Assembly (NCBI GenBank): GCA_003154195.1 | Contig: PMCS01000006.1 | Span: 17,676 to 81,675 of the forward strand | Source: Candidatus Omnitrophota bacterium | Lineage (GTDB): Bacteria > Omnitrophota > Gorgyraeia > Duberdicusellales > 4484-171 | Length of the DNA: 64,000 bases | Direction: 5' to 3' | Program-made: the position numbers and the translations under genes | The notes under the pieces: model-generated | What the model was told of the DNA's origin: nothing | The model's input: only the letters and a program-made list of their open reading frames with translations | Database searches by the model: none | Shown: one piece after another, positions 19,852 through 49,067 of the stretch | Position numbering within the stretch: position 1 is the first letter of the stretch | Layout of the letters: each line of letters begins with the position of its first letter

Positions 19852-20202
19852 ATGCAAATATTAATAATTATACTGATAATTGTCGGGCTAATTGCAATTG
19901 GCAATATTTATAGTTTCATAAAATATTTAAATGCCGCAACGGAGCATGAAAAACAGGAAAACTATAAAGAAGCTTGTTTTTCATATTCTCAGCTTTTATT
20001 GCACTCTTTGTTCTCGAAAATCCACGGAACATATTACAAAATGAAAATTCAATCGTTGTGGAATACCAATGGTCCTTTTGATTATGAATATAAATACAAC
20101 AATATCATACAAAACAGAGAAGATACCGGTGACAACGAAATAGAATTAAGAGATACCATACAATACATTGGTAAAATTGTTGACGAAAATAAAAATGCAT
20201 AA
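19852..20202 (+). CDS. Hypothetical small membrane-anchored protein
   Basis: N-terminal TM helix MQILIIILIIVGLIAIGNIY. No SD, and the start overlaps the T1 cassette, so the start is uncertain. Confidence 0.4.
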   Translation: MQILIIILIIVGLIAIGNIYSFIKYLNAATEHEKQENYKEACFSYSQLLLHSLFSKIHGTYYKMKIQSLWNTNGPFDYEYKYNNIIQNREDTGDNEIELRDTIQYIGKIVDENKNA

Positions 20203-20270
20203 CAACTCCTTTCAGCGTACGTCAGGGCTGCGCCCTGCCACCGCTGAAGCCGATGTTATAGGAGGGAAAA

Positions 20271-20912
20271 ATGCGGAAATTATTTTTAGCGATTATCTTT
20301 TCTTTATTTTGGCCGGGAGCAACTGGTCCTTATATTCTTTATGCGCAGTCAACAGAGCTTTCCCAGGATAAAAACGGAAATCTTGAACTTCACGTGGTAA
20401 CAGATGAAAACGTTGATATCAAGGTGTTTATTGATGATAAGCTTGCGGTGGACGAACAGTTTCACAAACAGCGAGAAAAATATTCTATAGGAATTGCTCC
20501 ACATAAGGTATTTTGTTTTAATCTTCAACCGGGCAAACATACGCTGTGGGCTGAGGCCAACCCGGGAAAACAGAGTTTTGCGGGTGAGTTTGAAATAAGG
20601 GATAAAGGAGTTGTGATAACACAAAGCTTCGGCCTATTCAATGTTGGCGCCGAGACCGTATTCGACGACTTAATAAAGAACGGCTATATTGACGTTAATG
20701 GTATAATCCGGGAAAAGTTTAAACAGATTGCAGAGTACTCCCAAATGAAGTTAAGCCAAGACTATCGCGACTGGGAAAAACAAAAGATTTATAACATTTT
20801 GCGACAGAGCGATAAACGATGGCTTTCGCTTAGTTACGTTGATCCTCAACGGATAAAGCAAAAGGAACAATTTACTTTGGAAGCGTACGATTGGCAGATT
20901 ATGTATCAATGA
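20271..20912 (+). CDS. Hypothetical secreted protein
   Basis: SD ggaggg 6 nt upstream. Signal peptide MRKLFLAIIFSLFWPGATGPYILYA. No recognisable domain. Confidence 0.6.
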   Translation: MRKLFLAIIFSLFWPGATGPYILYAQSTELSQDKNGNLELHVVTDENVDIKVFIDDKLAVDEQFHKQREKYSIGIAPHKVFCFNLQPGKHTLWAEANPGKQSFAGEFEIRDKGVVITQSFGLFNVGAETVFDDLIKNGYIDVNGIIREKFKQIAEYSQMKLSQDYRDWEKQKIYNILRQSDKRWLSLSYVDPQRIKQKEQFTLEAYDWQIMYQ

Positions 20913-20994
20913 TTGCCTTCGCCGGATAACTCGACTGTGATTTTATTAAAAAATAAAGAAGAACACCCAAGAAAACAAAATTTGGGAAAAAAAC

Positions 20995-21510
20995 CCTATA
21001 ACAAATCAATCAACCGGACTTTTTCGCGGCTTTTTAAAGCCGCTCAAAAGCCGGTTATTTCTATGTTGCGCGAAATCCAAATAATATAGAATCAGTATTT
21101 ATTAATGAGACTTCGTCGAACGAACGTGCGAAGTGCATTCAGTGAGGCGGTAGTGAAACTTATCCTGCCGTATTCGGCGGGATGTAGTTGAACTATCCCC
21201 GCAGGGGGTAGTCGAATTAGCGCAACGCGGAGCTCAGGCTTCGCCGTTCCGCGCTTTGTCGCGCCTAAATTAAAAAATCGTACGCGCACGCGAAGCACCT
21301 TAATGTAAGCATGCAGCGAGTCCCGCCGTAGGCGGGGACAAATCGCTTCCGCCAAAAACAAGATACGGCGGACAGGCCATCGGAAATCGCGTATAAGTAC
21401 GCGGATAAACCTGCCACCTATATCATTTAATAGTAAGCAGGCTTATCCGCTACCTTGATAGCGCAATGGAGTTTATCCTGAGCGAAGTCGAAGGGCTGAG
21501 CTCCGCGGTA
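20995..21510. repeat. Hairpin module (ccggactttttcgcggctttttaaagccgctcaaaagccgg) plus element A copy 3 (longest, about 450 bp)
   Basis: Begins gttgcgcgaaatccaaataatatagaatcagtatttatt + ttaatgagacttcgtcg..., with the same body as copy 2 plus extra internal sequence, and ends ctgagctccgcggta. The antisense ORF 21092..21361 is repeat-derived. Confidence 0.9.
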
Positions 21511-21598
21511 GAACTATATGAAAAATAAAGTCGTAAATTTTACCGCAAAAACACAGCAAATATGTTATAATTTAGCCAAGAACATAGGAGGAATAAAA

Positions 21599-21778
21599 AT
21601 GAGCCCAATAAAATTAGAAGCAAAAAAATTGATCAGCCGTTTACCGGACAGCGCGACATGGGACGACATACTTTACGAATTCCATGTTAAAAGGAAAATC
21701 GATATTGCCCTCGATGCTGTAAAGAGTGGCAAAATTATTTCTCACGAACAAGCTAAAAAGCGCCTGTTATCAAAATGA
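21599..21778 (+). CDS. Type II antitoxin (putative addiction-module antitoxin partner of the ParE/RelE toxin)
   Basis: SD aggagg. 59 aa (MSPIKLEAKKLISRLPDSATWDDILYEFHVKRKIDIALDAVKSGKIISHEQAKKRLLSK). ATGA overlap with the downstream toxin. Confidence 0.65.
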   Translation: MSPIKLEAKKLISRLPDSATWDDILYEFHVKRKIDIALDAVKSGKIISHEQAKKRLLSK

Positions 21779-22068
21779 CAATACTCTGGTCAGAGCCATC
21801 CATTTCGGATTTAAAAAATATTAAAGACTATATCGCCAAAGACTCCCCTTATTATGCCGCCATCTTTATTGAAAAAATAATTACCGCCGTCGAAAAACTT
21901 GCCACCCTTCCACTCGTCGGACGCATCGTTACTGAATGTAACGACAAACACATAAGAGAAGTAATATATCAACACTACCGAATAATTTACAAAATTAATC
22001 ATAAAGCCCTCATCATCTTAACCGTGGTGCATGGCGGCCGTGATTTGTCCGGCTGGGCTAAAAAATAA
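21775..22068 (+). CDS. ParE/RelE-family type II toxin
   Basis: 97 aa with the typical ParE-like pattern ...YYAAIFIEKIITAVEKLATLPLVGRIV...REVIYQHYRIIYKI...ILTVVHGGRDL. Confidence 0.75.
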   Translation: MTILWSEPSISDLKNIKDYIAKDSPYYAAIFIEKIITAVEKLATLPLVGRIVTECNDKHIREVIYQHYRIIYKINHKALIILTVVHGGRDLSGWAKK

Positions 22069-22135
22069 TCAAATTGCTAACCGATCAATCCAGCGAGATC
22101 TCGCCAAAGGCGGACTGCTGATTTATGCGTTGCGC
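22069..22135 (+). terminator. Terminator cassette T2 copy 2 followed by a truncated element-A start (gttgcgcgaaat)
   Basis: aatccagcgagatctcgccaaaggcggactgctgatttatgcgttgcgcgaaat. Confidence 0.55.
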
Positions 22136-22248
22136 GAAATATAATTACTAAAGGTGATCATGTAATGGAGAAATCTCGGCTTCTACTAAAAGAAGTATTT
22201 TCTATCCGCGAAGCGGGCGGCATTTATTTTTTACGGAGTAAAAAATAA

Positions 22249-27699: not shown

Positions 27700-27960
27700 A
27701 TCCAAAACCGTAGGCGCGCTTAGAGCGCGACTTCAGGTTTTGGGTAATGAGGCTTCGCCGAAATCAAGCGCGAAGCGCGCAGGTTGAGGCGGTAGCCGAA
27801 CTTCCCGCCTGCGCTTCACTCGGCGGGATCACGCTTCCTTGATATAACCATATTAGGAAGGCGGTGAACCTCGAGCGAGGAGCGAAGCGACGAGTCGAGG
27901 GATAATGAGCCTTAATTTTTTTCCGCCTATGGCGGGAAAAAAATCCAGGTCTTATTAATA
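27700..27960. repeat. Mosaic repeat (reverse-oriented modules of the CTCATTAA family) in the polyamine-operon upstream region
   Basis: ccgtaggcgcgcttagagcgcgac; taatgaggcttcgccg; the reverse complement of 27780-27870 matches the ggttcaccgcc..cccgccgag..gcaggcgggaa module at 34220 and 51940; ttttttccgcctatggcgggaaaaaaa hairpin. Confidence 0.8.
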
Positions 27961-28033: not shown

Positions 28034-28363
28034 ATGGAAGAATTAGCTTATAAAATAAAAGCGGATTTTCTGGGAGCGTTGGCCCATCCGTTACGCCTCC
28101 AGGTAATCGAGTTTTTAAAAGGCGGCGAGAAAAACGTCGGAGCGATAATTAAGACACTGGGAATCCCCCAATCCAGTCTTTCCCGCCACCTGACTATCTT
28201 GAGGGAAACCGGCATATTGAAATCGCGGCAGCAGGGAACGACGATCTATTACGCTATCGACGACCGGGATATATTCAGCGTTCTGCGGCCGATTGCGGAA
28301 ATGCTGCGGAAGAAACTTAAAAAAACCGAAGCGGTTTTGAATAGTTTAGGCAAAGAGGAATGA
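28034..28363 (+). CDS. ArsR/SmtB-family transcriptional regulator
   Basis: HTH segment LAHPLRLQVIEFLKGGEKNVGAIIKTLGIPQSSLSRHLTILRETGIL. 109 aa. Confidence 0.85.
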   Translation: MEELAYKIKADFLGALAHPLRLQVIEFLKGGEKNVGAIIKTLGIPQSSLSRHLTILRETGILKSRQQGTTIYYAIDDRDIFSVLRPIAEMLRKKLKKTEAVLNSLGKEE

Positions 28364-31301: not shown

Positions 31302-33137
31302 ATGGGATATTTTAATGCGTCGATGTCTTTTTCTTTTGACTATCTCTCTCTGTTTTTTCTTGCCGTTATCGCCGTCGTATCTGTTCCCAGCGCGGTATAT
31401 TCTGTAGGCTACCTGAAGGGAGAATATCCGCGGGCAAAAATTATTTTTGCCTGGTTTTTGCTCGTTATGTTTATCCTGGCGATGGTTTTGGTAGTTACGG
31501 TCAGCAACGCATTCGTTTTTCTTATCGTCTGGGAAACGATGTCGCTGGTTTCCTATTTTCTTGTTACTTTCGATAACGAACAAGAAAAATCGTTACGCGC
31601 GGGGATAATTTACATTGTCATGACCCATGTCGGTACGGCATTGATCACGGCGGCGATTTTAACAATGTTTCAGTACAGCCATTCTTTTGATTTTGCGGCG
31701 CTTAAATCCGGTTGCCAAATTATGCCGGAAAATACTAAGAATTTCGTTTTTATTCTCCTTTTTTTCGGTTTTGGCGCCAAAGCCGGGGTAGTGCCTCTGC
31801 ACATCTGGCTTCCTTACGCTCATCCCCAGGCGCCCAGTCACGTATCCGGCATCATGTCGGGGGTAATGATTAAAATCGCCATATATGGGATATTGCGTTT
31901 TGTCATATGCATCCTGGGAGTAACGGCGATGTGGTGGGGAAATATGATTTTAATCATCGCTTCAATTTCCTGCGTTGTAGGGGTTATGTATGCGCTTATG
32001 GAGCATGATATAAAAAAACTTTTAGCCTACCATAGCGTCGAAAATATCGGAATAATTTTGCTGGGTATCGGGGCGGGGATGGTGTTTTTAAAAATGGACC
32101 TTCCCGTCCTGGCGGTTTTTGCGTTTTGCGCCGGGCTCTATCATCTGATCAATCACGCGATCTTCAAGGGGCTGTTATTTTTATGCGCCGGCAGCGTGTA
32201 CAAAGCGACCGGAACGCGCGACATCGAAAAACTGGGCGGCCTCATCAAAGTCATGCCGCGCACGGCGCTGTTTTTTTTAATCGGCTCCATCGCGATTTCC
32301 GGCCTGCCGCCCTTAAACGGCTTTGTCAGCGAATGGCTTACGCTTCAGGCTTTTTTTCTGGGGGCTTTAGCCGGTACTGCCGGCACGAAAATTTTTATGG
32401 GGTTGTGTGCCGCGGTTTTGGCGCTGACCGGCGGCCTTGCCGCCGCGTGTTTCGCGAAAGCCTTCGGGGTAACTTTCTTAGCGATGCCGCGCAGCGCGCG
32501 CGCGGCTAACGCGAAAGAAGTTTCACTGAGCATGAAATCGGCAATGTTTTTTCTGTCTTTGCTTACGGTCATCTTCGGCTTATTCCCGGCGGTAATAATG
32601 AAAATATTAGTCAAAGTTTCCGGCGAGATAACAGGGATCGATACCGCGGCCATGAGTTTTAGCCTGAATAATTTTTCCCTCGCGCCGCAACCCGCGAACC
32701 GCGCGTGTTTATCGAATCCTTTGCTGGCATTAATCCTTATTTTCTTTTGCGGTTTAGCGGCGGCCGTGTATTATCTATTGCCGGGGCGTAGGAATACCGT
32801 AAAAAACCGAACATGGGATTGCGGGTATTATAAGCTGGATAGCCGTAACGAATATACCGCTACGGCATTTTCCAAACCTTTCCGGGCGGCGTTCAGCTTT
32901 TTCTTTTTGCCTTATCGAAAAACCGAAAAAATACGGGAGTCTTTTTATCATGTAAAATATTTCAAATACGAAACGTTCACTACGCCTATTTTCAAACAAT
33001 ATATTTACGACCCGATCGTCAACGCGATATTTATGGCCGCCGGCTACATGCGCCGGATCCAGCGGGGGAGTATCCATCTATATATCGCGTATATTTTTAT
33101 TACTCTATTGGGGCTTATCATTTTTTATCGAGGATAA
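31302..33137 (+). CDS. Hydrogenase-4 component B / formate hydrogenlyase subunit 3-like antiporter-type membrane subunit (NuoL/HyfB family)
   Basis: Start at MGYFNAS with a ggag SD (track ORF begins 31245). Polytopic, with conserved ...WETMSLVSYFLV... and ...LPYAHPQAPSHVSG... segments of the NuoL/HycC/HyfB family. Confidence 0.85.
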   Translation: MGYFNASMSFSFDYLSLFFLAVIAVVSVPSAVYSVGYLKGEYPRAKIIFAWFLLVMFILAMVLVVTVSNAFVFLIVWETMSLVSYFLVTFDNEQEKSLRAGIIYIVMTHVGTALITAAILTMFQYSHSFDFAALKSGCQIMPENTKNFVFILLFFGFGAKAGVVPLHIWLPYAHPQAPSHVSGIMSGVMIKIAIYGILRFVICILGVTAMWWGNMILIIASISCVVGVMYALMEHDIKKLLAYHSVENIGIILLGIGAGMVFLKMDLPVLAVFAFCAGLYHLINHAIFKGLLFLCAGSVYKATGTRDIEKLGGLIKVMPRTALFFLIGSIAISGLPPLNGFVSEWLTLQAFFLGALAGTAGTKIFMGLCAAVLALTGGLAAACFAKAFGVTFLAMPRSARAANAKEVSLSMKSAMFFLSLLTVIFGLFPAVIMKILVKVSGEITGIDTAAMSFSLNNFSLAPQPANRACLSNPLLALILIFFCGLAAAVYYLLPGRRNTVKNRTWDCGYYKLDSRNEYTATAFSKPFRAAFSFFFLPYRKTEKIRESFYHVKYFKYETFTTPIFKQYIYDPIVNAIFMAAGYMRRIQRGSIHLYIAYIFITLLGLIIFYRG

Positions 33138-33151
33138 AATAGCGAGGCATT

Positions 33152-34072
33152 ATGAAAACGATTGTTGTTATCGGGCAAACGTTATTGGTAATCTTGCTTG
33201 CGCCGTTAATCGGCGGCTTCATCCGTAAGATTAAAAATAATTTACGGATGCGCAAGGGCGCGCCGGTTTTACAGCCTTACTATAATTTGAGTAAGCTTTT
33301 CATCAAGCAAGAGGTCGTATCGGATAATTCTTCCTGGATATTTAAAATCACACCATTTATCGTATTGGGGGCGGCAGTCACGGCATTATTACTGGTGCCA
33401 TTTTTTCATACCGGTTTTTCCCTAAGTAATATCGGAGATTTTTTTGCGCTGATATTTATTTTATCGTTAGGCCGTTTTTTTCTCGCTCTCGCCGGCTTAG
33501 ACACCGCCAGTTCGTTCGGCGGTATGGGATCTTCCCGGGAAATGTTTTTATCCAGCCTGGTGGAACCGACGGCAATCCTTGCCGTAATGGCGGTTTCTTT
33601 GAATGCCGGTTCGACCAATCTTGAAATGATCGCAAATGTTGGGGCGATACCGGTTTCTTCGTTATTAGCCGCCTTAGCGTTATTTTTAGTCACAATCGTC
33701 GAGACCGGCCGTATCCCCATCGATAATCAGGAAACCCATCTTGAACTTACCATGATTCATGAAGCGATGGTTTTAGAGTATTCCGGACGATCCCTGGCAA
33801 TGATCGAATTGGCCGCGTATATAAAACAAGCAATATTTTTTTCCTTGATTGCCGGCATTATATTACCGTTCAGTATTGTTTATCCGTTTAGTTACGCGCA
33901 GGTTTTAGCCGGTTTCGCGCTATTCGGCGGAGAGATAGTTGCTATTGCCGTCATAACGGCGGTCACGGAAGTTTCGATTGCGAAAATGCGTTTATTCCGG
34001 GCGGTAGATTTTTTAGCGTTTTCTTTCGCCCTGGGGATTATGGCGGTCGTCGCCCAGTCAATACGGTTGTAA
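33152..34072 (+). CDS. Hydrogenase-4 component C / formate hydrogenlyase subunit 4-like (NuoH/HycD family)
   Basis: 306 aa polytopic protein. The N-terminal LLVILLAPLIGGFIRKIKNNLRMRKGAPVLQPYYNLSKL matches the NuoH-type signature. Confidence 0.85.
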   Translation: MKTIVVIGQTLLVILLAPLIGGFIRKIKNNLRMRKGAPVLQPYYNLSKLFIKQEVVSDNSSWIFKITPFIVLGAAVTALLLVPFFHTGFSLSNIGDFFALIFILSLGRFFLALAGLDTASSFGGMGSSREMFLSSLVEPTAILAVMAVSLNAGSTNLEMIANVGAIPVSSLLAALALFLVTIVETGRIPIDNQETHLELTMIHEAMVLEYSGRSLAMIELAAYIKQAIFFSLIAGIILPFSIVYPFSYAQVLAGFALFGGEIVAIAVITAVTEVSIAKMRLFRAVDFLAFSFALGIMAVVAQSIRL

Positions 34073-34164
34073 GGCATTTAGTATCGTGGTAGTTTTTACA
34101 TTATCAGGAAATGGCTGCGTAGTTTTTTAATTCGTCTTTTCGGGAAGATGGGGTTAATATATTT

Positions 34165-34440
34165 TTCCGGGGGGTGAATTTATTTTTTGCGCAGTAAACC
34201 CCCTCGCTAACGCTTCAGGGGTTCACCGCCTCCCTGATAATTATATCAAGGAAGCGGGATCCCGCCGAGTGAAACGCAGGCGGGAAATTCGACTACCGCC
34301 TCGTCTGGCGACCCCGCCATCCCATAGATGGCGAGGTCTCGTCAATTCGTTTAACGAATTGACGGACTTCAGGCTTGATAATTCAACTAAGCCCTGGGTA
34401 CCGGGCTAGTTTCATTACGGCGAAGTCTCATTAATAATTT
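34165..34440. repeat. Mosaic repeat (CTCATTAA family, long form) inserted between the hyfC-like and hyfE-like genes
   Basis: ggggg...tttattttttgcgcagtaaaccccc; ggggttcaccgcctcc; gcgggatcccgccgag; gcaggcgggaaattcgac; ggataattcaactaagccctgggtaccgggctagtttcattacggcgaagtctcattaataatttATG. Confidence 0.85.
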
Positions 34441-35079
34441 ATGCAAATCGATATATTTTTATTCGGCATGTTAATCGCTAATTTTTTGATGGTTGCGGCG
34501 AAAAGAATTTCCGCTTTAATCAACGGGTTTTGCCTGCAGGCATTGTTGCTTTTTTTAGCTACCTTGATTCTGGCCATCCGTTCAAAAAATATTGAGTTGT
34601 ATATTGTGGCTTTTTTGCTGTTTCTTTTAAAAGTAGTTTTAGTCCCTTATTTTTTACGGCGGATCGTGAAACGGATAAAAGTAGAGGAGAATCTCGGGCT
34701 TTTTGTCAATTCGGCCCTCTCTTTATTTTTAGTCTTAATCTTTACTTATATGGCTTACCTTTTTGCTTCCACATTTATGCCCGTAGGCGAAAGCGTTAAC
34801 GGTATTTCCTGCGTCATCTCGTTATCGGTGATGATGACCGGTGTTTTTATGATGATTTCGCGCATAAAAGCACTGACGCAGATTATCGGGCTTTTAGTCA
34901 TCGAAAACGGTTTGTTTGTGTTTGCCGCGGCAGTTTCCGGCGGCATGCCTTTCATCGTGGAGATAGCGATTTTCTTTGATGTTTTTGTTTGCGTCATAAT
35001 TTTGGGTATTTTTGTTTATCGAATCAACCGGCTTTTTACGCATATTGATGTCAACAAATTAAGGAACCTGAAGGGGTAG
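34441..35079 (+). CDS. Hydrogenase-4 component E-like small membrane subunit (HyfE/NuoK-related)
   Basis: 212 aa, 6-7 TM helices, in the hyf operon position. Assignment rests mainly on context and size. Confidence 0.65.
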   Translation: MQIDIFLFGMLIANFLMVAAKRISALINGFCLQALLLFLATLILAIRSKNIELYIVAFLLFLLKVVLVPYFLRRIVKRIKVEENLGLFVNSALSLFLVLIFTYMAYLFASTFMPVGESVNGISCVISLSVMMTGVFMMISRIKALTQIIGLLVIENGLFVFAAAVSGGMPFIVEIAIFFDVFVCVIILGIFVYRINRLFTHIDVNKLRNLKG

Positions 35080-35134
35080 CGCTTGACCAGTTTTTAAACG
35101 CAAGGCGCGTAGGGAATGCGCGCCGCCCAATCGG

Positions 35135-36610
35135 GTGTCCAGAGGTTATGCGATGCAGTTATTCTATATTCTTGCTCTGCCCTTGCTGCTGATGCTTGTC
35201 CCGGTATTTATAAAAAATAATCGGGTAATCGGGATAATCAATGCGGTAGGGTATTTTTCCCTTTTATTGCCGGCTTTAACCCTGGCGCGTAACTTAGCTT
35301 CCGGCGGTTCCGGGATATCTTTTTTTAACTTTTTCTATGTCGATTCGTTAAGCGCTTTTTTTATTTTGACTACCGCGGTAGTCGGATTTGCCTCCAGCCT
35401 TTATTCCATCGATTATATCGCTAAAGAAACCGCGCATGGCGTTATTTCCGGGAAAAAAGCGAAAATATACTACGCCCTTTTTAATTTATTTCTTTTCTCC
35501 ATGTTTTTCGCGCTCACCGTAAACAACCTGGGGATGTTGTGGGCGGCGATTGAGATGACTACCCTTGCTTCAGCCTTTCTCGTGGGTTTTTACAATACCG
35601 GCGAATCGGTAGAAGCGGCGTGGAAATATATAATTATTTGTTCGGTCGGCATCGCCATCGCCCTTTTCGGGACAATACTTTTTTATTACGCGTTATCCGG
35701 CTCCGGCACGAACAGCCTTAACTGGACGGATATGGCGATGGCCGCCAAAAAACTTGATCCGCGTGTCCTGAAAATCGCATTTTTATTTATTCTGGTCGGT
35801 TATGGGACTAAGGCTGGTGTCGCTCCGATGCACACCTGGCTTCCCGATGCCCATAGCCAGGCGCTTACGCCGATCAGCGCGTTGTTGTCGGCGGTGTTGT
35901 TGAAAACCGCCCTTTACGCGATTTTGCGTTTCGCGATTATCGTAAATAAATGCGCCGGGGAGCAGTATTGCGGAAATTTATTTATATTTTTCGGTTTATT
36001 ATCTTTAGGGATTTCCGCCGGGTTTGTGATTTTGCAAAAAGATATCAAGCGGTTGCTGGCTTACAGCAGTATCGAACATATCGGCGTGGTTCTCGTAGGT
36101 TTTGGTATTTCCGGCGTCCTGGGGATTTATGGCGCGCTAATGCATGTTTTTAACCATGCCGCGGCAAAATCGCTGATGTTTTTTTGCGCCGGTAATATTT
36201 TAAAAAACTACAAGACTACCAACATGAATGTTATCCGCGGCTTAGGCAAAGTCCTGCCGTTTACCGGCGTCGTGGCAATTTTAGGAGCGTTTGCTCTTTC
36301 CGGTTCGCCGCCATTCTCTCTTTTTATCAGCGAAATTATGATTTTAGCCGCCGCCTTTTCCAAAGGCTCCTACATCGTTTGCGCGCTATTTATTATTTTT
36401 CTTTCGGTGGCCTTCGCGGCGATTGTCTACAACCTGAGCCGGGTAGTTTTCGGCAAAAAGCCTGAAGGGATGGTTGTGGAGGGGGAGGCGTTGAGTACGA
36501 AACTGGCGTTTGTTTTTTTATTCGTCTTGATTTGTGTTTTAGGCGTGAAGATTCCCGCGTTTTTTAACGATATCTTAACCGCCGCGGGAAAAGTAGTAAG
36601 CGGGGCTTAA
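35135..36610 (+). CDS. Hydrogenase-4 component F-like antiporter-type membrane subunit (NuoM/NuoN/HyfF family)
   Basis: About 490 aa polytopic protein with ...GYGTKAGVAPMHTWLPDAHSQA... typical of the NuoM/N family. Alternative start at 35153. Confidence 0.8.
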   Translation: MSRGYAMQLFYILALPLLLMLVPVFIKNNRVIGIINAVGYFSLLLPALTLARNLASGGSGISFFNFFYVDSLSAFFILTTAVVGFASSLYSIDYIAKETAHGVISGKKAKIYYALFNLFLFSMFFALTVNNLGMLWAAIEMTTLASAFLVGFYNTGESVEAAWKYIIICSVGIAIALFGTILFYYALSGSGTNSLNWTDMAMAAKKLDPRVLKIAFLFILVGYGTKAGVAPMHTWLPDAHSQALTPISALLSAVLLKTALYAILRFAIIVNKCAGEQYCGNLFIFFGLLSLGISAGFVILQKDIKRLLAYSSIEHIGVVLVGFGISGVLGIYGALMHVFNHAAAKSLMFFCAGNILKNYKTTNMNVIRGLGKVLPFTGVVAILGAFALSGSPPFSLFISEIMILAAAFSKGSYIVCALFIIFLSVAFAAIVYNLSRVVFGKKPEGMVVEGEALSTKLAFVFLFVLICVLGVKIPAFFNDILTAAGKVVSGA

Positions 36611-36615
36611 TCAAT

Positions 36616-38208
36616 ATGCCGGCAAGTTACGAAAAAATCATCAGCGAACTTAAGGAGAAAACCGGAGCTATTCCGCTGCGGCTGGATTATCCTGCCGCGG
36701 ATGAGGCCTATCTCGAAGTTTCTTTATCTGATTTTAACAAAACCTGTTTATGGTTCCACAAGAAGTTTAATTCCCCGGTGATGGCTTTTTTTGCCGTGGA
36801 CGAACGAAAACTCTCCGGCGCCTACGCTATCTATTGCTTGTTTTTAGCGCTGGACGGCAAAAAATGGCTGTTTACGCGCGCGGCGATACCGCAGGATTAC
36901 CCTCGCTTTAATTCTTTAGCCCGGGAAATCTATTCCGCCAGTCGATTTGAGCGGGAGATAAAAGAGATGTTTGGGATCGAACCGGCCGGCAATCCCGATA
37001 CGCGCCGGTTAAATCTGCACGATGAAGTCTGGCCGGCCGGATTTTATCCTTTGCGCAAGGATTTTGATTCCCGTGCGGTACAATCCGGCGAACGGGGGGA
37101 ATATAAATTCGACCGTATCGACGGAGAGGGGGTATTCGAAATCCCCGTAGGGCCGGTACACGCTGGGATAATCGGGCCGGGGCATTTCCGTTTCAGCGTG
37201 GCCGGAGAGCCGATTATCAACCTGGAAATCCGGCTGGGGTTTACCCATCGCGGTGTGGAGAAACTTTTTGAAGGTAAGGATGCGCATACCGGCATAGAAC
37301 TTTCCGAACGCGTTTGCGGCGATGCGGCATTCAGCCATTCACTTTCTTTCTGCCGGGCGATGGAAAAAATAGCTAAGGCTGAACTGCCGGAGCGGGCGCA
37401 ATATTTACGGGCGATATTCCTTGAACTGGAACGGATGTATAATCATGTCAACGATATTGCCGGGATCGCTCTCGACGTCGGGTTTACCTTTGCCGCCGGA
37501 TACGCCGCGGTGATCAAAGAGTCGCTGCTGGGCGTTAATGAAAAATTAACCGGCAGCCGGTACCTTAAGGGCGTGAACGTCTTGGGCGGAGTTTGCCGGG
37601 ATATCGAAGGCGATAAAAAAATATTTTTGAAAAATTACCTCGTCGATACTGGGAACGATTTTAACCGGCTGACCGCGATGCTTTATTCCAGTACTTCGTT
37701 TATGGATCGGGTGGACGGAACGGGGATCTTGAAACGAAAAACTGCTTTCGATTTTGGAGTAACAGGATTGGCCGGCCGCGCCTGCGGTATCGGGCTGGAT
37801 TTACGTAAAAACTTCGAAGAAGTTTATAATAAAGTAAATTTTAAAGCGGCAAAAGAAGAAAAAGGTGATGTCCTGGCGCGGCTTAATGCGAGAATAAAAG
37901 AATTCGAGGAATCCCGGCGGTTGATAAAATATTTTCTCGCCAAGCTGGATGAGGTAAAAACCGGATTGGCCGCGGCCGCTGGGCCGGCAAGAGAAGGCTT
38001 CGGCCTGGGCTATTGTGAATCCTGGCGCGGTCCCTTGCTCTATTGGGTAAAATTGGACGCGGCAGGCCGGATTGAGCGCTGTAAGATAACTGATGCCTCG
38101 GTACATAATTGGCAGGGGTTAGCTTACTCGGTTTTAGGCAACATTATTCCTGATTTTCCGGTTTGCAATAAAAGTTTTGATTTATCCTATGCCGCTAACG
38201 ATTTATAA
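36616..38208 (+). CDS. Group-4 [NiFe]-hydrogenase large-subunit homologue (fused NuoC-NuoD-like; HycE/HyfG family) with degenerate Ni-Fe binding motifs
   Basis: The N-terminal NuoC-like domain is fused. The L1 motif reads ERVCGDAAFSHS where HycE has RxCGxCxxxH. The C-terminal motif reads DFPVCNKSFD where HycE has DPCxxCxxR. Only 2 of the 4 canonical Cys ligands remain. Confidence 0.85.
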   Translation: MPASYEKIISELKEKTGAIPLRLDYPAADEAYLEVSLSDFNKTCLWFHKKFNSPVMAFFAVDERKLSGAYAIYCLFLALDGKKWLFTRAAIPQDYPRFNSLAREIYSASRFEREIKEMFGIEPAGNPDTRRLNLHDEVWPAGFYPLRKDFDSRAVQSGERGEYKFDRIDGEGVFEIPVGPVHAGIIGPGHFRFSVAGEPIINLEIRLGFTHRGVEKLFEGKDAHTGIELSERVCGDAAFSHSLSFCRAMEKIAKAELPERAQYLRAIFLELERMYNHVNDIAGIALDVGFTFAAGYAAVIKESLLGVNEKLTGSRYLKGVNVLGGVCRDIEGDKKIFLKNYLVDTGNDFNRLTAMLYSSTSFMDRVDGTGILKRKTAFDFGVTGLAGRACGIGLDLRKNFEEVYNKVNFKAAKEEKGDVLARLNARIKEFEESRRLIKYFLAKLDEVKTGLAAAAGPAREGFGLGYCESWRGPLLYWVKLDAAGRIERCKITDASVHNWQGLAYSVLGNIIPDFPVCNKSFDLSYAANDL

Positions 38209-38245
38209 AAAATTCGCTGATTTTTCCATATTTTTTGCTTATTTT

Positions 38246-38322
38246 TTATCCGTGACAATCGGTGTTGATCGGTGGCAAAAAAGTTTTTTGGCCACGGATT
38301 GTCACTGATATGCACGGATTAA
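38246..38322. repeat. Palindromic element (family P): ttatccgtgacaatcggtgttgatcggtggc - aaaaaagtttttt - ggccacggattgtcactgatatgcacggattaa
   Basis: About 29-bp arms in inverted orientation around a palindromic A6/T6 centre. Sits between the large and small subunit genes. Second copy at 45140..45232. Confidence 0.8.
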
Positions 38323-38368
38323 TAAATAAAATTCTGTGGTTGTTTTTGACAAAACAAAGAGGACATTT

Positions 38369-38884
38369 ATGTTTGAGATATATAAGAATAGCCTGGCTAA
38401 AGGCCTGGTCACCCGCAAAATTGCCAAAGAAACAATTTTGTCGAAAGATTTCGATAACCTTGGGTTGGAATTAAAAGCGTTAATCAAAGAGAAGTTCGGC
38501 CGGTCATTTCACATCCGTGAGGTTGATACCGGTTCCTGCGGCGGCTGCGAATCGGAAATTATCGCCTGCTCCAATCCCGTTTACGATATCCAGAGATTCG
38601 GGGTGGATTTTGTCGCTTCGCCCCGCCACGCCGACGCGTTACTGGTCACCGGCCCGGTATCGAAAAATATGCTGCTTGCGTTAAAGAAGACTTATGACGC
38701 GATGCCGGAGCCTAAATTCGTTATTTCTTTAGGTGATTGCGCTGCCGATGGAGGAGTTTTTAAAGAGTCATATTATACTATCGGCGGTGTCGATAAAGTC
38801 TTGCCGGTGGTTTTACATATCCCCGGCTGTCCGCCCACTCCGACGCGAATTATCAGCTGTCTTATGTCTTTTTTGCGAAAATGA
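38369..38884 (+). CDS. Hydrogenase small-subunit homologue (NuoB/HycG family, [4Fe-4S])
   Basis: Start at MFEIYK after SD aagagga (track ORF begins 38336). Motifs GSCGGCESEIIAC, GDCAADGG and GCPPTP, the NuoB/HycG cluster-binding cysteines. Confidence 0.9.
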   Translation: MFEIYKNSLAKGLVTRKIAKETILSKDFDNLGLELKALIKEKFGRSFHIREVDTGSCGGCESEIIACSNPVYDIQRFGVDFVASPRHADALLVTGPVSKNMLLALKKTYDAMPEPKFVISLGDCAADGGVFKESYYTIGGVDKVLPVVLHIPGCPPTPTRIISCLMSFLRK

Positions 38885-38939: not shown

Positions 38940-40785
38940 ATGGATAAAATAAAACTCGGCTGTTTTAAAAAACATTTTTACGCGTATATCGCTTTATCTA
39001 TCGGGATTATCCTTTCCCTACTTCTTTTTATTTATTCCCGTAAACTGGAAACAAAATATTTACATGGTGAATTTAATCTTCTGGCGCGGGATCGCGCCAG
39101 CATCATTATTAACGGCGTATTGGATAACCTGGATTTCGTTAAATCAATAGCTCATTTTTACGCCGGCAGCGTAAGCGTGGAGCGCAACGAATTCCACGAA
39201 TTTACCCGCCAAACCCTTACCGAGCGTCACGATATTTACGAGTTTCGCTGGCTTAAGCGAGTTTCCGGGCCGCAGCGCCAGGCGTTTGAAGAAACGGCTT
39301 CCCGGGAGTTGGGCTATAATTTTTATATCAAAGATCGCGCCGGGGAAGGCGATTTCCTGAGAGCGCCATCGCGCGAAGAATATTTCCCGGTTTTTTTTAT
39401 CGAGCCCGGAGACGCGGCTAAAAATAAAATGTTAGGTTTTGACGCCGCCGGCGTACCGGAACGCTTACGGGCGATGAAAAAGGCTTGCGCTACCGGTGAG
39501 GCGGTAATCGTCCCGGAGTTGGTGATTTTTGGTGAATCAAAATTTAAAACCGCGACGCGTATTTATATCCCTGTCTACCTAAATGGTATTCCCCATAAAA
39601 CTATTGAAGAGCGCCTTAAGAATCTTACCGGTTTCGCGGTCGTTTTATTTAATATGGAAGCTATGGCGGATATTCTACTCAAGGATATGCGCGGGATGGG
39701 TATTGATACTTACGTATATGATGAAGCGCTTCCCGCAGGCAAACGCCTTATTCTAGTTGATTGCTCCCTCGCCCCGGGAAAGCCTATCGTGCCAATTTTC
39801 GGGGAAGAACAGCTAAGGGGTACAACCGGCATCGCCTGGAAAAGGTCGTTTAACGTGGCTGATTCAAAATGGACGATAGTCTGCCGCGCTGCCCCGGCAT
39901 TTTTAAAAAACCATCGGCAGAGGGTGCTAACTCCCTGGTTTATTTTAGCGGTATGCTTACTTATTACCCTAATCGCTGCGCTTTATATCGATAACCTCGT
40001 TAGGCGTGCTTCTATTGTTCAAGCGTTGGTTGAACAAAAAACCGAAGAGTTAAAAGTTCTGCACGCGCAACTCGCTCAGCAGTTCAAAATGGCCGCCATC
40101 GGGCAATTGGCCGGCGGCGTTGCTCATGAAATAAATAATCCCCTCGCAGGTATTTTAAATAATCTCCAATTGATAAAGATGAAGATGGGGGACGGCCGGA
40201 AATTTGAGGTTGCAGAATTTAAGGAAACTTTACAAGTTATGGAAAAATCCGGCCTGCGATGCAAGAATATAGTCAAATCCTTGATTGATTTTTCCGGGCC
40301 TTCGAGTGAATATCTGGAGCCGGTATCGCTTAATGATCTTGTGGCGAAAGCCAGGGAATTGGTTTCCGAAAAATTAAAGATTAACCATATCGATTTCATC
40401 GAAGAACTAGAGCCGGACATGCCTAAAATCATCGGCGACCGCCGGCTTCTACAGCGGGCGGTTTTTGATCTTCTGTCTAATTCTTGCTGGGCAATCGGCA
40501 AAAAAAAACGGGCCTTCCGGCGGTACGGTGCGGATAAAGACATGGCATGAGCAAAAAAACAATCTTGTCGCCATCGCTATTTCCGACACCGGTATCGGCA
40601 TCCCTAAAGAAAATATAAAGAAAATATTCGAACCTTTTTTTACGACTAAAGATGTAGGTGAGGGGACTGGCCTCGCCTTGGCTTTGGTATATAGCGTCGT
40701 TAAGCTTCACAAGGGTACGATTGAGGTGGAAAGCGAAGTTGATAACGGCGCGACATTTACGATAAAACTGCCGGTTGGTGGATAA
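38940..40785 (+). pseudogene. Sensor histidine kinase (periplasmic CHASE-like sensor, TM, HisKA, HATPase_c) interrupted by a +1 frameshift in an A9 run
   Basis: Frame 1 (38940..40550) carries the sensor, TM2 and the H-box MAAIGQLAGGVAHEINNPLAGI and ends ...[14 protein letters not shown]. The ATP-binding G-boxes continue in another frame (40465..40785: GGTVRIKT...DTGIGIP...[10 protein letters not shown]). The junction is caaaaaaaaacggg at about 40499-40508. Deleting one A restores [14 protein letters not shown]. Confidence 0.8.
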
Positions 40786-44280: not shown

Positions 44281-44500
44281 ATTTTATTTTTTGCGCAGCA
44301 ATCCCCGTTGTTGGGGATAATTCGACTATCCCCTACGGGGATAGTTCAACTAAAGACATTTGTTGCGGCTTCGCCACACAAATGTCTAAGTTTCACTACA
44401 GCCTCAATCGGCGTCCCCCTTGCGCGGGGCTTGTAATGAAACTTGCCCCGGGGCACCGGGCTTAGTTTCATTATCGGCTAAGTCTCATTAAAAGAAAATT
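44281..44500. repeat. Mosaic repeat (CTCATTAA family, long form) forming the purN upstream region
   Basis: ttttattttttgcgcagcaatccccgttgttgggga; ggataattcgactatcccctacggggatagttcaactaa; gacatttgttgcggcttcgccacacaaatgtc; tttcactacagcctcaatcggcgtcccccttgcgcggggc; gaaacttgccccggggcaccgggcttagtttcattatcggctaagtctcattaaaagaaaattATG. Confidence 0.9.
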
Positions 44501-45139: not shown

Positions 45140-45232
45140 AGCCACCGATTGTCACGGATAAACACGGATTTTAATAAAAAACTAAACAAATACATTGTTT
45201 ATCCGTGACAATCAGTGTTAATCCGTGGCTAA
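45140..45232. repeat. Palindromic element family P copy 2 (gccaccgattgtcacggataaacacggat ... atccgtgacaatcagtgttaatccgtggc)
   Basis: Arms match those at 38246..38322 but in swapped order. Sits between purN and the convergent lipoprotein gene. Confidence 0.8.
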
Positions 45233-45247
45233 AATAAGCCGTTGTAG

Positions 45248-46084
45248 CTAATTTCCTTCCAAGAGCGCTTTCCGGGAATAAAAAACCGCGTTTTTGTGGG
45301 CGATATCATTTATCTCAAATGAGTTGATTTCCGGGGCGTCGTAGATTTTTAAAAACCGGCGGATTGATTTTTTTATCTCGTCACCGGCGTTAAACGATAC
45401 CGCGGTTTTGTTTACCGGCGTTACGTCGAGAATCACGGAAAGGCGGCCGTCGGCATAATAAGAATACAGGTCGTTTGTTTTGAAATTTTTGACCATTTCC
45501 TTGTCGGTTAATTTTCGTTCCAGGTTCTGTTTTATGAGATAGGCAAGAAAATTGCCCATCTCCATTTCCGGCATGGTTATATGTTTTCCCAGCGCATCGC
45601 CGATTGCTTCGGTGGTAAGCAAGAAAGTAAAAACTTCCCGCTCCTGCCATTCGCTTAACGAGATCATGCCCGCGTCGACTTTCATTATATCGAGAACCGT
45701 ACCGATATAATAAAGGTCGGCGCCGGTTTTTATATCGGAAAAAACAAACGCATAAAATTTTGGCCGTTTTTCCATACTGAGGATGACGCGTTTTAGCGCG
45801 GTAAAAATCTGGCGCATTTTTGTGTTGGCGTCGTTGTCGAAGGTTTTCTTTTCGGTAAGGATTTTATTGAGGGGAACGTAAACCCAGATAGTGTCGCCGG
45901 CCTCGCGGACAACCGGTTTTACATTAAATTCTTTTCCGCAGATATTAACCAACGATGTTTCGATGTTTTTACGGTTATAGGTATATTTAGGTTTAGAAGG
46001 AGAACAAGCCGGCAAGCATAAGAGAAAAAAAACAACAAGGACGTGCTCAACCAGCTTCTTTAAATACCGCTTCGATTTCGTCAT
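45248..46084 (-). CDS. Hypothetical lipoprotein
   Basis: Lipobox-like FFLLCLPAC. 278 aa. Its 5' end overlaps the 3' end of the upstream FtsH gene by 38 nt, so the start is uncertain. Confidence 0.5.
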   Translation of the reverse strand: MTKSKRYLKKLVEHVLVVFFLLCLPACSPSKPKYTYNRKNIETSLVNICGKEFNVKPVVREAGDTIWVYVPLNKILTEKKTFDNDANTKMRQIFTALKRVILSMEKRPKFYAFVFSDIKTGADLYYIGTVLDIMKVDAGMISLSEWQEREVFTFLLTTEAIGDALGKHITMPEMEMGNFLAYLIKQNLERKLTDKEMVKNFKTNDLYSYYADGRLSVILDVTPVNKTAVSFNAGDEIKKSIRRFLKIYDAPEINSFEINDIAHKNAVFYSRKALLEGN

Positions 46085-49067
46085 AATTGAGTTCTTCTTT
46101 TTCTAATAGCCTGGCCATCAGCTTTTCTAATATCGCGTCTTTTTCTTTTAGCAGCGTTTCGGTTTCTTTCATGCATTCCTGCATTATGTCTTGCACGTCC
46201 GCGTCGAGTTTAGCCATCATTTCTTCGGACATCAATGTTTGCCCGGTACGCTGGTTGGTCAGCGAGGAGAAGTTGCCGATAAACCCGGATTTTCCCATGC
46301 CCCACGACCAGACCATCTGGTGCGCATACTGCATGGCGTTACTGAAATCGCTGCTTACGCCGTCGGATGTAGCGCGGCATTTAAGTTTTTCCGCAGCGTA
46401 TCCACCCAGGGAAACTTTTATACTGCTTAAAATCTGTATTTTGTTATGGACCAATGTTTCAGCTTTCCCCGGCGCCCACATCACGCCGGCGGTTTCTTTG
46501 CGGGGAATAATCGAGAGTTTAAATATTTCCCGGCTGCCGGCTAAGAAATAAGTTACCACCGCGTGCCCCGCTTCATGAACGGCGGTAGAGCGTTTTTCTT
46601 CGTCGCCTAATTTTATACGGCGTTTTAGCCCTAATTCAACGCGTTCGCGCGCTTCATCAATTTCTTTTAATCCCATTGTTTCTTTTTGATTGCGTACGGT
46701 GATCAGCGCTCCTTCGCGTACAATGTTTGATATATCGGCAGGGCTCCAGCCGGCAGTAACGCGGGCGAGCCGGTTGCTGTCGATTTCCTGCGCGTTAAAT
46801 TTAATCTTCGCGAGATAGTAATCAAAAAGTTTGGTGCGGTCTTCCAGGCCGGGTAATTCAACGTATAGTTTTCGGTCAAACCTTCCCGGCCGCAAGAGCG
46901 CCGCGTCAAGAAAATCTTCATTGACGTTGGTCGCGCCGATGATCACGATATTATATTGCTCATTTTTTTCTTTGAGGCCGTCAAGCTCGGTCAAGAGCTG
47001 GTTTAAAGTCTGGTTGTATTCGCGGTCGCCGCCGGAGCGCGCGTCTTCCCGCTTGGCGCCCAGCGCGTCGATTTCATCGATAAAAATGATACAGCCGCCT
47101 TTGGATGAAGCTAATTCCCGCGCTTCCTGGAAAAGATGGCGGATGCGGCTGGCGCCTACGCCGACATACATTTCAACAAATTCCGAACCGGATTTCGCCA
47201 GAAAAGGCAGGCCCGCTTCGTTGGCCATGGCCGAGGCAAGATAGGTCTTACCGCATCCCGGCATCCCAAACATTAAAAGCCCGCGGATGATCCTGCCGCC
47301 TACTTCGTTTAACTGCGCGTGGTCTTTGATCAGGCTGACTATTTCTTTCGCTTCCTGCTTAGCGTCGTCCATGCCGATAACGTCGTCCCAGCCGATTTCG
47401 TTTTCCGATTTTTTCGTAATTTTATCCATAAGGCGAACCTTGCCGTATTCTTTGAAAATCGCCTCGAGCGCGTCGTAATCCAGCTCGTTTTTAGAAACCA
47501 ATTCTCCGGCAATACGCTCCAGGATAACCATTTCTTTGCGCAATAAGTCATGAACCTCGTTAAAGCACTTGTTGATAATATCGGCCTTATCTTTTTCGGC
47601 GATCTGGCGCGAATGCATATCCCACTGTCCGGAAACGGTATTGGGCCCCGATGTTCCCATACCCCACTTGAAAGCCATACTTTCGGCAACCACATTGGCG
47701 GTTTCAAGGTCGTTTCCCACGCCGCTGGTGGTAACGCCGAATTTTATTTTTTCGGCGCAATAGCCGCCTAAGCAAATCCGTATTTCATTCAATAAATCGT
47801 CTTTGTCGGGAGCAAAAACTTCTTCTTTTTGCGCGATCCAGGTCGAGCCCAGAAGGCTTGTCCGGGGGATAATGCTGGCTTTAAAAACGTCTTTTGTCGG
47901 AACCATAAGATAGGTAACGATGGCATGTCCCGCTTCATGATAGGCGGTAGAAATTCGTTCTTTTTCGCTCATCGTAAGGTTTATTTTGATGCCCATGGCA
48001 AGACGTTCGCGCGCTTCCTCGATGTCGGACATCATCACCGACTGTCTTTTTTTGCGGGCCGCGATTAACGATGCTTCGCGGACAATATTGGCGATGTCGG
48101 CGGGAGTGTTTCCGATGGTCAATCTTCCCAGCCGGTCAATTTTTACGTCACTGGTGTTGTATTGGATTTTGTCCAGATAATACTTAAAGATTTCTCCGCG
48201 GTCTTTAAGGTTAGGGAAGCCGATATAAATTTTTCGGTCAAAACGGCCGGCGCGCATCAGGGCCGAGTCAAGTTCATTTTCCGGCACATTGGTGGCGGCG
48301 ACGATAATAATATTTTTCTCTTTTTGCTTGATGCCGTCCATTTCCGCGAGCAACTGGTTGACGGCCATATTATAGCTTTCCGCGCCGCCCAGGCCGAAAC
48401 CGCGCGTGCGCGGCCGGGCTACGGAATCGACTTCGTCGATAAAAATAATACATCCGCCTTTCATGTCGGCAAGTTCGCGCGCCAGCTTAAAGAGTTTCTT
48501 TATTTTCATCGCGCCTAAGCCGACGATAATCCCTTCCAGTTCGCTGCCGATAACCGAGAGAAAGGGTATGCCGCATTCGGTAGCGATTGCTTTTGCCAGG
48601 TACGTTTTGCCGACGCCTGGTTGGCCGATGAGGAGCAAGCCTTTAATCAAAGGGGCGCCGATAGTGGTAAGACGCGTGCGTTCCCGGATAAGCTCTACTG
48701 CTTCCCATGCTTCGCGTTTGGCATCTTCCATACCGATTACGTCTTTCCATTTTATCCCGATTTCATCGCCCCGGAGAGCTTTAGTCTGTAATTTTGAAAA
48801 CTCACTATAGCCGCCGCCCCGGTACATCCAGTAGAGGAAGTATACGTAAATGGCGCCGCCCATGATCGAGCCGATAAGGTAGAGGTAAAGCTGGTAACCC
48901 ATACCGGCCTTCATCTGTTCCTTATAGAATGATTCCATGCCCATCCAGGCTTTAGCGCTGGCGTAGATTACCGTAATCAATGAAATCACCAGGAGCGCTA
49001 ATACCGTAATGACAAGAATGCGCAGCCAGTATAATCGTAAAAAGATTTTTGCTTTTCTTGGATCCAT
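46047..49067 (-). CDS. ftsH: Tandem double-FtsH: membrane-anchored protein with two complete AAA+ ATPase plus M41 zinc-metalloprotease units in one polypeptide
   Basis: SD aggag. Two N-terminal TM helices with no periplasmic domain. Unit 1: Walker A GQPGVGKT, Walker B IIFIDEVD, SRH ATNVPENELDSALMRAGRFDRK, HEAGH. Unit 2: GMPGCGKT, IIFIDEID, ATNVNEDFLDAALLRPGRFDRK, HEAGH. 1006 aa. Confidence 0.9.
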   Translation of the reverse strand: MDPRKAKIFLRLYWLRILVITVLALLVISLITVIYASAKAWMGMESFYKEQMKAGMGYQLYLYLIGSIMGGAIYVYFLYWMYRGGGYSEFSKLQTKALRGDEIGIKWKDVIGMEDAKREAWEAVELIRERTRLTTIGAPLIKGLLLIGQPGVGKTYLAKAIATECGIPFLSVIGSELEGIIVGLGAMKIKKLFKLARELADMKGGCIIFIDEVDSVARPRTRGFGLGGAESYNMAVNQLLAEMDGIKQKEKNIIIVAATNVPENELDSALMRAGRFDRKIYIGFPNLKDRGEIFKYYLDKIQYNTSDVKIDRLGRLTIGNTPADIANIVREASLIAARKKRQSVMMSDIEEARERLAMGIKINLTMSEKERISTAYHEAGHAIVTYLMVPTKDVFKASIIPRTSLLGSTWIAQKEEVFAPDKDDLLNEIRICLGGYCAEKIKFGVTTSGVGNDLETANVVAESMAFKWGMGTSGPNTVSGQWDMHSRQIAEKDKADIINKCFNEVHDLLRKEMVILERIAGELVSKNELDYDALEAIFKEYGKVRLMDKITKKSENEIGWDDVIGMDDAKQEAKEIVSLIKDHAQLNEVGGRIIRGLLMFGMPGCGKTYLASAMANEAGLPFLAKSGSEFVEMYVGVGASRIRHLFQEARELASSKGGCIIFIDEIDALGAKREDARSGGDREYNQTLNQLLTELDGLKEKNEQYNIVIIGATNVNEDFLDAALLRPGRFDRKLYVELPGLEDRTKLFDYYLAKIKFNAQEIDSNRLARVTAGWSPADISNIVREGALITVRNQKETMGLKEIDEARERVELGLKRRIKLGDEEKRSTAVHEAGHAVVTYFLAGSREIFKLSIIPRKETAGVMWAPGKAETLVHNKIQILSSIKVSLGGYAAEKLKCRATSDGVSSDFSNAMQYAHQMVWSWGMGKSGFIGNFSSLTNQRTGQTLMSEEMMAKLDADVQDIMQECMKETETLLKEKDAILEKLMARLLEKEELNYDEIEAVFKEAG

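Follow-up and report, generated by a model that had tools for sequence, protein, structure and literature searches.

An Ehr-like operon from Candidatus Omnitrophota whose large subunit lacks the NiFe site

The window analyzed here is a stretch of 64,000 nucleotides (nt) from a Candidatus Omnitrophota contig (PMCS01000006.1, positions 17,676 to 81,675 of the forward strand; assembly GCA_003154195.1), and all coordinates below count from its first letter. At 31302-38884 it holds six co-directional open reading frames (ORFs) on the plus strand, all intact and full length, that probably encode an energy-converting hydrogenase-related (Ehr) complex. In order, the products are HyfB/NuoL-like, NuoH/HycD-like, HyfE-like, HyfF/NuoN-like, a fused NuoC-NuoD large subunit and a NuoB-like small subunit, which we call EhrA, EhrB, EhrC, EhrD, EhrL and EhrS. 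An earlier note made from the letters alone (the sequence-only reading) had proposed this gene set and order, and Pfam and NCBIfam families and gene calls bear it out. The calls, made on contig PMEA01000111.1 (GCA_003154645.1), which encodes identical proteins, give the same genes and also the starts that the reading had assumed at 31302 and 38369.

EhrA (31302..33137; 611 amino acids (aa) from its ATG, in an ORF open from TTG 31245) is an antiporter-like membrane subunit that matches Pfam Proton_antipo_M at 2e-58 and NCBIfam 'hydrogenase 4 subunit B' at 653 bits, slightly below the family cut-off; its closest solved structure is HycC (7z0s_C, 2e-77). The membrane anchor EhrB (33152..34072; 306 aa; Pfam NADHdh 4e-37) is closest to HycD (7z0s_D, 9e-41). 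EhrC (34441..35079; 212 aa) is a small membrane subunit recognized by the NCBIfam 'hydrogenase 4 membrane subunit' (HyfE) model at 5e-24; it has neither a Pfam match nor a solved-structure match, and its gene takes the same position in every complete related locus. The second antiporter-like subunit, EhrD (35153..36610; 485 aa, in an ORF open from GTG 35135), matches Proton_antipo_M at 2.5e-54 and 'hydrogenase 4 subunit F' at 3e-149.

The large subunit EhrL (36616..38208; 530 aa), HycE-like in its fusion, is covered by Pfam Complex1_30kDa (PF00329), NiFeSe_Hases (PF00374, over its N-terminal 67 residues only) and Complex1_49kDa (PF00346, 1.5e-31). It matches HycE (7z0s_E) at 1e-66 by sequence, and its AlphaFold2 model (mean pLDDT 85.9, with low confidence in the beta1-beta2 loop, 163-210, and at the C-terminus, 526-530) superposes best on HycE, with a TM-score of 0.88 at 30% identity. 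EhrS (38369..38884; 171 aa, in an ORF open from GTG 38336) is a NuoB/HycG/MbhJ-like small subunit with one predicted [4Fe-4S] site; it matches Oxidored_q6 at 1e-30, MbhJ at 8e-37 and HycG at 6e-36.

Among solved structures, four of the six subunits are closest to chains of the Escherichia coli formate hydrogenlyase FHL-1 (PDB 7Z0S), with membrane-bound hydrogenase (MBH), complex I and the sulfane-sulfur reductase MBS ranking behind. The gene order likewise parallels hyfB-C-(D)-E-F-G-(H)-I of Hyf (FHL-2). Unlike FHL-1 and Hyf, the operon has no HyfA/HycB, HyfD, HyfH/HycF, HyfJ, FdhF or maturation genes, and no NiFe site.

The charged residues of the membrane arm are strictly conserved. EhrA E78, K160, K191 and K289 are invariant in 43/43 homologues, and EhrD E134, K220, K251 and K339 in 63/63; from established knowledge of NuoL/M/N and from alignments with HycC and MbhH, we take these to be the canonical Glu of transmembrane helix (TM) 5 and the Lys residues of TM7, TM8 and TM12. 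Invariant acidic residues of EhrB include E130, E138, E184, E194, E198, E204, E209, E219 and E273. EhrB and both antiporter-like subunits thus retain the charged ion-carrying residues of complex I, MBH and FHL. The peripheral subunits are conserved as strongly as the membrane ones, and the whole module is under strong purifying selection across several phyla.

Large and small subunits

Group 4 hydrogenases hold nickel and iron with two pairs of cysteines, one near each end of the large subunit. At the N-terminal pair HMMER aligns EhrL RVCGDA with HycE RVCGIC, so that C234 is present and the second ligand position is A237, as the sequence-only reading had it. At the C-terminal pair that reading had taken PVCNKSFD for the ligand motif, which proves to be the wrong register. 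HMMER aligns EhrL 'SFDLSYAAND' with HycE 'SLDPCYSCTD', placing 'DLSYAA' opposite 'DPCYSC' of HycE and 'ELCYAC' of the nearest four-Cys hydrogenases. We searched EhrL against a library of 1.84 billion proteins (50%-identity clusters). Of the 150 best hits 125 are full-length, and 18 of these 125 are four-Cys hydrogenases with a 'PDFP(L/V)xNKSF' context in common with EhrL. The nearest of them end 'PDFPLINKSFELCYACxDR', against 'PDFPVCNKSFDLSYAANDL' in EhrL; across all 18 the end is '...NKSFELCYACxDR', against '...CNKSFDLSYAANDL'. Because these relatives carry EhrL's own NKSF context, they fix the register, and together with HycE they set the C-terminal ligand positions at S524 and A527. The cysteine of 'PVCNKS', C517, lies 7 residues upstream of the ligand position, where true hydrogenases have Ile or Val. 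By these alignments EhrL retains one of the four Ni-Fe ligand cysteines, C234, and not the two first counted; the loss of ligands that the reading had reported is more thorough than it claimed, and the alignment with HycE gave no sign of the alternative that all four cysteines are present.

Residue counts in 120 close homologues (57-64% identity) extend this picture to the clade. Position 234 is Ser in 84, Ala in 13, Cys in 12 and Thr in 9; even C234 is thus not under selection. Cys is found at position 237 in 0/120; Ser occupies position 524 in 119 and Gly position 527 in 115, EhrL itself having Ala at the latter. Other residues around the former site are strongly kept. Asp236, the 'x' of CGxC, occurs in 119 of the 120 and in most Cys-less representatives; Asp287 is specific to the Cys-less relatives, with Gly in the four-Cys hydrogenases; Ser524 and Gly527 are likewise specific to the Cys-less family. 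Cys517 is nearly fixed in the clade (119/120), recurs in about one in three Cys-less representatives and is never seen in the four-Cys ones.

The catalytic glutamate is gone as well. MbhL E21, the proton-reduction residue of MBH (PMC7684303), corresponds to G187 of EhrL, and all 120 clade members have Gly, Pro or Ala at this position. The same Glu ('HAGIIEPGH') is present in 100% of the 18 4f-like hydrogenases and in 96% of the other Cys-less Ehr sequences. Since the NiFe site and the proton-reduction Glu are both lost, EhrL is, as judged from its residues, not a hydrogenase. The opposing idea, that of a working Hyf-like (group 4a/4f) [NiFe] hydrogenase with unusual ligands that include C234 and C517, has in its favor an overall fold and operon of Hyf/4f type and the near-invariance of C517 (119/120). 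It is nevertheless extremely improbable: three of the four ligand positions are not Cys and the remaining one is mostly Ser across the clade, C517 aligns with Ile or Val in all four-Cys relatives, the catalytic Glu is missing, and the 64-kb window has no hyp or hycI genes.

The nearest four-Cys relatives, found for example in the Planctomycetota 'Ca. Wujingus' and on a Desulfotomaculum-like contig, are 39-43% identical in the large subunit, have the order HyfB-NuoH-HyfE-HyfF-NuoCD followed by the small subunit, and share the motifs 'HAGIIxPGHFRF' and 'DFPLxNKSF'. They differ in keeping all four Cys, the Glu and a ferredoxin domain on the small subunit. Our '4f' label for them rests on PMC10284858.

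EhrS aligns without gaps to MbhJ and HycG through SCGGCE, GDC and GCPP, its SCGGCE standing opposite SCNGCD of MbhJ and GCNGCE of HycG with the CxxC spacing of hydrogenases. The cysteines C57, C60, C124 and C154 occur without exception (62/62) in homologues from different phyla that are about 65% identical. The cluster-ligand string of the sequence-only reading is therefore right for SCGGC, GDC and GCPP; the 'AC' that it also contained is not a ligand position.

These cysteines bear on the analogy, drawn by the same reading, with MBS/MBX of Pyrococcus furiosus (PDB 6U8Y), which would make the complex a sulfane-sulfur (polysulfide) reductase whose proximal cluster is itself catalytic. The analogy is sound in that MBS also derives from a hydrogenase, has degenerate NiFe cysteines and, as in MbsL (PMC7684303), has lost the E21-type Glu. 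MBS has 13 subunits, among them a Mrp module and MbsN; its MbsL keeps 2 Cys, and a shortened MbsJ motif yields a 3-Cys catalytic cluster (PMC7684303). None of this is found here. MBS needs a small-subunit motif three residues shorter, with 3 Cys ligands (PMC7684303), whereas the EhrS motif is ungapped with both CxxC cysteines invariant, and no Mrp-type module or MbsN/NuoI subunit is encoded. MbsL is also only the fifth-best solved relative of EhrL by sequence. A full-length small-subunit motif in which all four Cys are invariant makes the MBS mechanism unlikely; the analogy fails mechanistically, and we rate it as decidedly improbable, second only to the hydrogenase among the readings that we doubt.

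A minimal complex I, or NDH-1-like ferredoxin:quinone oxidoreductase, has more to recommend it, with homologues of NuoB, NuoCD, NuoH and NuoL/N present and relatives annotated by NCBI as 'NADH-quinone oxidoreductase subunit C'; a passage in bioRxiv 10.1101/765248, citing Marreiros 2013, suggests a quinone interaction for Ehr. Against this, the quinone head-group residues His38 and Tyr87 of Nqo4 align with Ile186 and Gly235 of EhrL, and EhrS has the CxxC of hydrogenases and not the tandem CC; quinone binding in the manner of complex I is unlikely for these reasons. The subunits all resemble FHL more than complex I, and there is no gene for NuoA, NuoJ, NuoK or NuoI in the operon or the window. 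We consider this reading unlikely.

EhrS has no CxxCxxCxxxC motif and no NuoI-like ferredoxin domain. In close loci the small subunit is 165-180 aa long and free of a Fer4 motif in 60/60 scored, whereas in the nearest true hydrogenase loci it is a fusion of 240-263 aa, with an N-terminal 2x[4Fe-4S] ferredoxin domain ahead of NuoB. One other Ehr clade has a Fer4-NuoB fusion too, and many other Cys-less clades are also without the motif. The Fer4 domain is absent from 75/77 C517-type Ehr and from 32/41 non-C517 Ehr; Cys517, which we considered as a marker of ferredoxin-domain loss, thus marks a tendency and not a rule. The missing NuoI-type module is a common Ehr variant and not peculiar to this locus.

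Related loci, neighbors and repeats

Scanning one genome per species, we found 73 loci, about 70 of which encode relatives 52-64% identical, in the identical six-gene order wherever the contig suffices. The carriers are mostly Candidatus Omnitrophota, including metagenome-assembled genomes deposited as 'uncultured Planctomycetales'; others belong to Elusimicrobia, Margulisiibacteriota, Saganbacteria/WOR-1 and Firestonebacteria. At E <= 1e-30 the large subunit has 906 relatives (50%-identity clusters), and the NiFe cysteines are missing from most of the 125 best full-length ones. A rough neighbor-joining tree of these 125 representatives places EhrL inside a large Cys-less 'SGD' radiation, with the four-Cys 'NKSFELCYAC' hydrogenases basal or interspersed; the tree is poorly resolved and includes no named Ehr or HydDB references. 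A locus of another Cys517-type Ehr clade (L081; GCA_964604315.1, CAZRYK010000013.1) has the small subunit gene first and a complete F-type ATP synthase operon within 3.5 kb after the Ehr operon.

The name Ehr was coined for Geobacter sulfurreducens GSU0739-45, which include EhrA-1 (NuoL-like), EhrC (HyfE-like), EhrL and EhrS (PMC7894505). The Geobacter complex resembles ours in its NuoL-, NuoH- and HyfE-like subunits, a second antiporter-like subunit, a large subunit without CxxC and a small subunit; the differences are the phylum and the Omnitrophota-type clade's G187, in place of the catalytic Glu, and near-invariant Cys517. Ehr has been described as a sister to group 4f hydrogenases without the CxxC motifs (PMC10284858), reported in Nitrospira, and noted in Elusimicrobia and bacteria of the candidate phyla radiation (bioRxiv 10.1101/765248; PMC7304191). 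Two Omnitrophota genomics papers, PMC10066038 and PMC8542988, do not mention it. The set reported from Riflemargulisbacteria and Saganbacteria comprises HyfB, HyfF, NuoH, HyfE, NuoCD and NuoB (PMC6349859); this subunit list is also that of our operon, and the loci of Saganbacteria (WOR-1) and Margulisiibacteriota belong to the same family, at 52-58% identity, with the same gene order.

For those bacteria a complex of formate dehydrogenase (FDH) with Ehr was proposed (PMC6349859), and the Geobacter Ehr subunits, detected as proteins, are more abundant in formate-grown cells (PMC7894505). Our operon could by analogy supply the membrane module of an FDH-Ehr complex. The NuoB gene of Margulisbacteria RA1A, however, also encodes a NuoI-like domain (PMC6349859 supplement), whereas here EhrS has no Fer4 domain through which a partner enzyme might be wired to it, and there is no FDH or NuoEF neighbor. 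The 64-kb window has no fdhA or nuoEF-like gene, nor is there one among the recurrent neighbors of related loci (below), and we hold this reading to be improbable.

No NuoI/HycF, HycB/HyfA, formate dehydrogenase, hyp or hycI genes were found in the window, in agreement with the sequence-only reading. A six-frame scan of the window met CxxCxxCxxxC only at 55033-55305 and 57672-57935, both within a 2-oxoacid (pyruvate):ferredoxin oxidoreductase cluster at 54441-57935, which has four subunits (gamma, delta with 2x[4Fe-4S], alpha, beta) and an extra Fer4 ORF. Lying about 16 kb downstream of the operon, this cluster is a plausible source of reduced ferredoxin.

To look for partners we clustered the flanking ORFs within 5-6 kb at 67 and then 135 related loci, the larger set including 80 loci from metagenomes that represent more distant Ehr and 4f relatives. 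No conserved partner gene emerged, with no neighbor cluster above about 11% of the 135 loci and no FDH, NuoEF or ferredoxin among the recurrent neighbors. The commonest are histidine kinases (15 loci), ArsR-type regulators (14) and a small DUF486-like membrane protein (11). In the window an ArsR/SmtB-type helix-turn-helix regulator is encoded upstream of the operon at 28034-28363. In the 14 loci, which span several clades (e.g. L021, L022, L039, L050 and L083), the ArsR-type regulator likewise lies upstream and mostly on the same strand. The recurrence gives a weak hint of metal- or redox-responsive control of the operon.

Two repeat elements interrupt the operon, as the sequence-only reading had noticed; both recur at least in part elsewhere in the window and are insertions relative to related loci. 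The first, between the EhrB and EhrC genes (34165..34440), is modular, a mosaic of short units that ends 3 nt before the hyfE-like ATG. Copies lie at 27786-27873 (minus strand), 44318-44498, 51939-52131 and 59422-59507 (minus strand), and also at 11157-11194. In four cases its last unit ('..AAGTCTCATTAAWA') stops short of a start codon by no more than about a dozen nt, and the genes that the unit ('..CGGCKAAGYCTCATTAAWA') precedes are unrelated: hyfE-like at 34441, a formyltransferase at 52135, an ORF at 44501 and a SurA-like gene at 59414 (minus strand). The modular repeat might be a mobile 5'-leader or promoter cassette.

The second element lies between the EhrL and EhrS genes (38241..38322) and is an 80-nt near-perfect palindrome, a long hairpin with a predicted RNA fold of -38.8 kcal/mol (z = -7.2); one arm only recurs, at 45194-45234. 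In relatives the genes leave almost no room between them (median gaps of about -4 to 3 nt). The EhrB and EhrC genes are separated by 368 nt here, where 48 related loci have a median gap of 1 nt and none above 91 nt; the EhrL and EhrS genes are 127-160 nt apart, where the median in 59 loci is 2 nt. In length each of the two spacers ranks at or near the top of about 50-60 related loci. Rfam gave no match in the repeats, and a scan of the operon for sigma-70 promoters and terminators returned the same counts as shuffled controls.

A complex that has lost its catalytic site, has no input module and is encoded by an operon with two repeat elements inside it, one of them such a hairpin, might have lost its redox function altogether, to leave a Mrp-like cation/proton antiporter with a vestigial peripheral arm, or a decaying operon. 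We doubt this. None of the six ORFs is broken or shortened, Cys is kept at all four Fe-S positions (62/62) across phyla, and conservation is as strong in the peripheral subunits as in the membrane ones. An identical EhrL also occurs in several independent assemblies; in three of them the rest of the operon is identical too, and in one the small subunit is 99% identical.

Proposed function

We assign a probability of roughly 0.85 to the operon encoding an Ehr complex, a six-subunit relative of the Hyf-type group 4 [NiFe] hydrogenases and of complex I. The Cys-less EhrL, the invariant residues of EhrS and the membrane subunits, and the published gene set all support the Ehr-like, hydrogenase-related complex that the sequence-only reading had suggested. 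The locus is a new member, from an Omnitrophota-type bacterium, of an already described family. Glu187 replaced by Gly, the near-invariant Cys517 and a small subunit without a ferredoxin domain set its clade apart.

What such an Ehr complex does is a more tentative matter, and our proposal of a ferredoxin-driven ion pump is one to which we give somewhat less than even odds. A redox reaction at the interface of EhrL, EhrS and the NuoH-like subunit would be coupled to translocation of H+ or Na+. Lacking a two-cluster subunit or domain of the NuoI type, the complex would receive electrons from its donor directly at the EhrS cluster; most plausibly the donor would be reduced ferredoxin that docks on EhrS itself, reduced for example by the nearby 2-oxoacid:ferredoxin oxidoreductase in a fermentative or acetogenic anaerobe. 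With no NiFe site and no catalytic Glu, protons would be excluded as acceptor, and the acceptor would not be a quinone bound in the style of complex I either. The former NiFe pocket would be relined with Asp236, Asp287, Ser524, Gly/Ala527 and, in this clade, Cys517.

Several points weigh against this explanation. The case for a redox pump is argued from conservation alone, and the single Fe-S cluster of EhrS could be merely structural. The 135 loci show no cis linkage to a gene for a donor or acceptor. The two repeat insertions might impair co-transcription of the six genes. The likeness to Geobacter EhrL was drawn from its published description and not from an alignment.

A bolder version, which we offer as a long shot, is that this clade has the most stripped-down complex-I-like redox pump known, with six subunits and one Fe-S cluster. 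Its rebuilt NiFe pocket (Asp236, Asp287, Ser524, Cys517) would do new chemistry, perhaps the binding of another metal or the reduction of a small soluble substrate with electrons straight from ferredoxin. The complex might be under ArsR-type redox or metal control.

Ehr complexes are widespread and lie on the evolutionary path between hydrogenases and complex I. To what is known of them this locus adds a corrected ligand map, a large Omnitrophota-centered clade without the catalytic Glu or NuoI-type input, and the finding of no partner in cis; the question of Ehr function is no more testable here than in the Geobacter homologue. There is also a practical consequence for annotation. Relatives carry misleading names, such as the NCBI name quoted above and, at JGI, 'Ni,Fe-hydrogenase III large subunit', and PF00346, which EhrL matches, served as a marker for 'respiratory complex I' in an Omnitrophota survey (PMC10066038). 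Because of these names and this match, Ehr genes can inflate the respiration or H2 metabolism inferred for uncultured phyla.

Other features of the window

Directly downstream of the operon is a CHASE-HisKA sensor kinase gene (38940-40550) that stops before the ATPase domain; HATPase_c is encoded in a separate overlapping ORF (40528-40785) in another frame. Independent assemblies (L001, L003) show this split too, and it could be either a real or a programmed frameshift.

A dense repeat region at 14800-22200 holds further families of direct repeats (units of 244, 72 and 81 nt, each in 2-5 copies) among short ORFs without a family, and an IS200-like Y1 transposase ORF (15213-15788) adjoins it. 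On the minus strand, 46047-49067 encodes a protein of 1006 aa with precomputed Pfam matches to AAA and Peptidase_M41, twice each, which could be an FtsH-like protease duplicated in tandem within a single chain. The ORF at 59786-64000 (plus strand) has at least 1405 codons and is cut off by the end of the window; a 62-nt repeat occurs within it, at 61439 and 62717, and its product is possibly a very large surface protein of the kind known from Omnitrophota.

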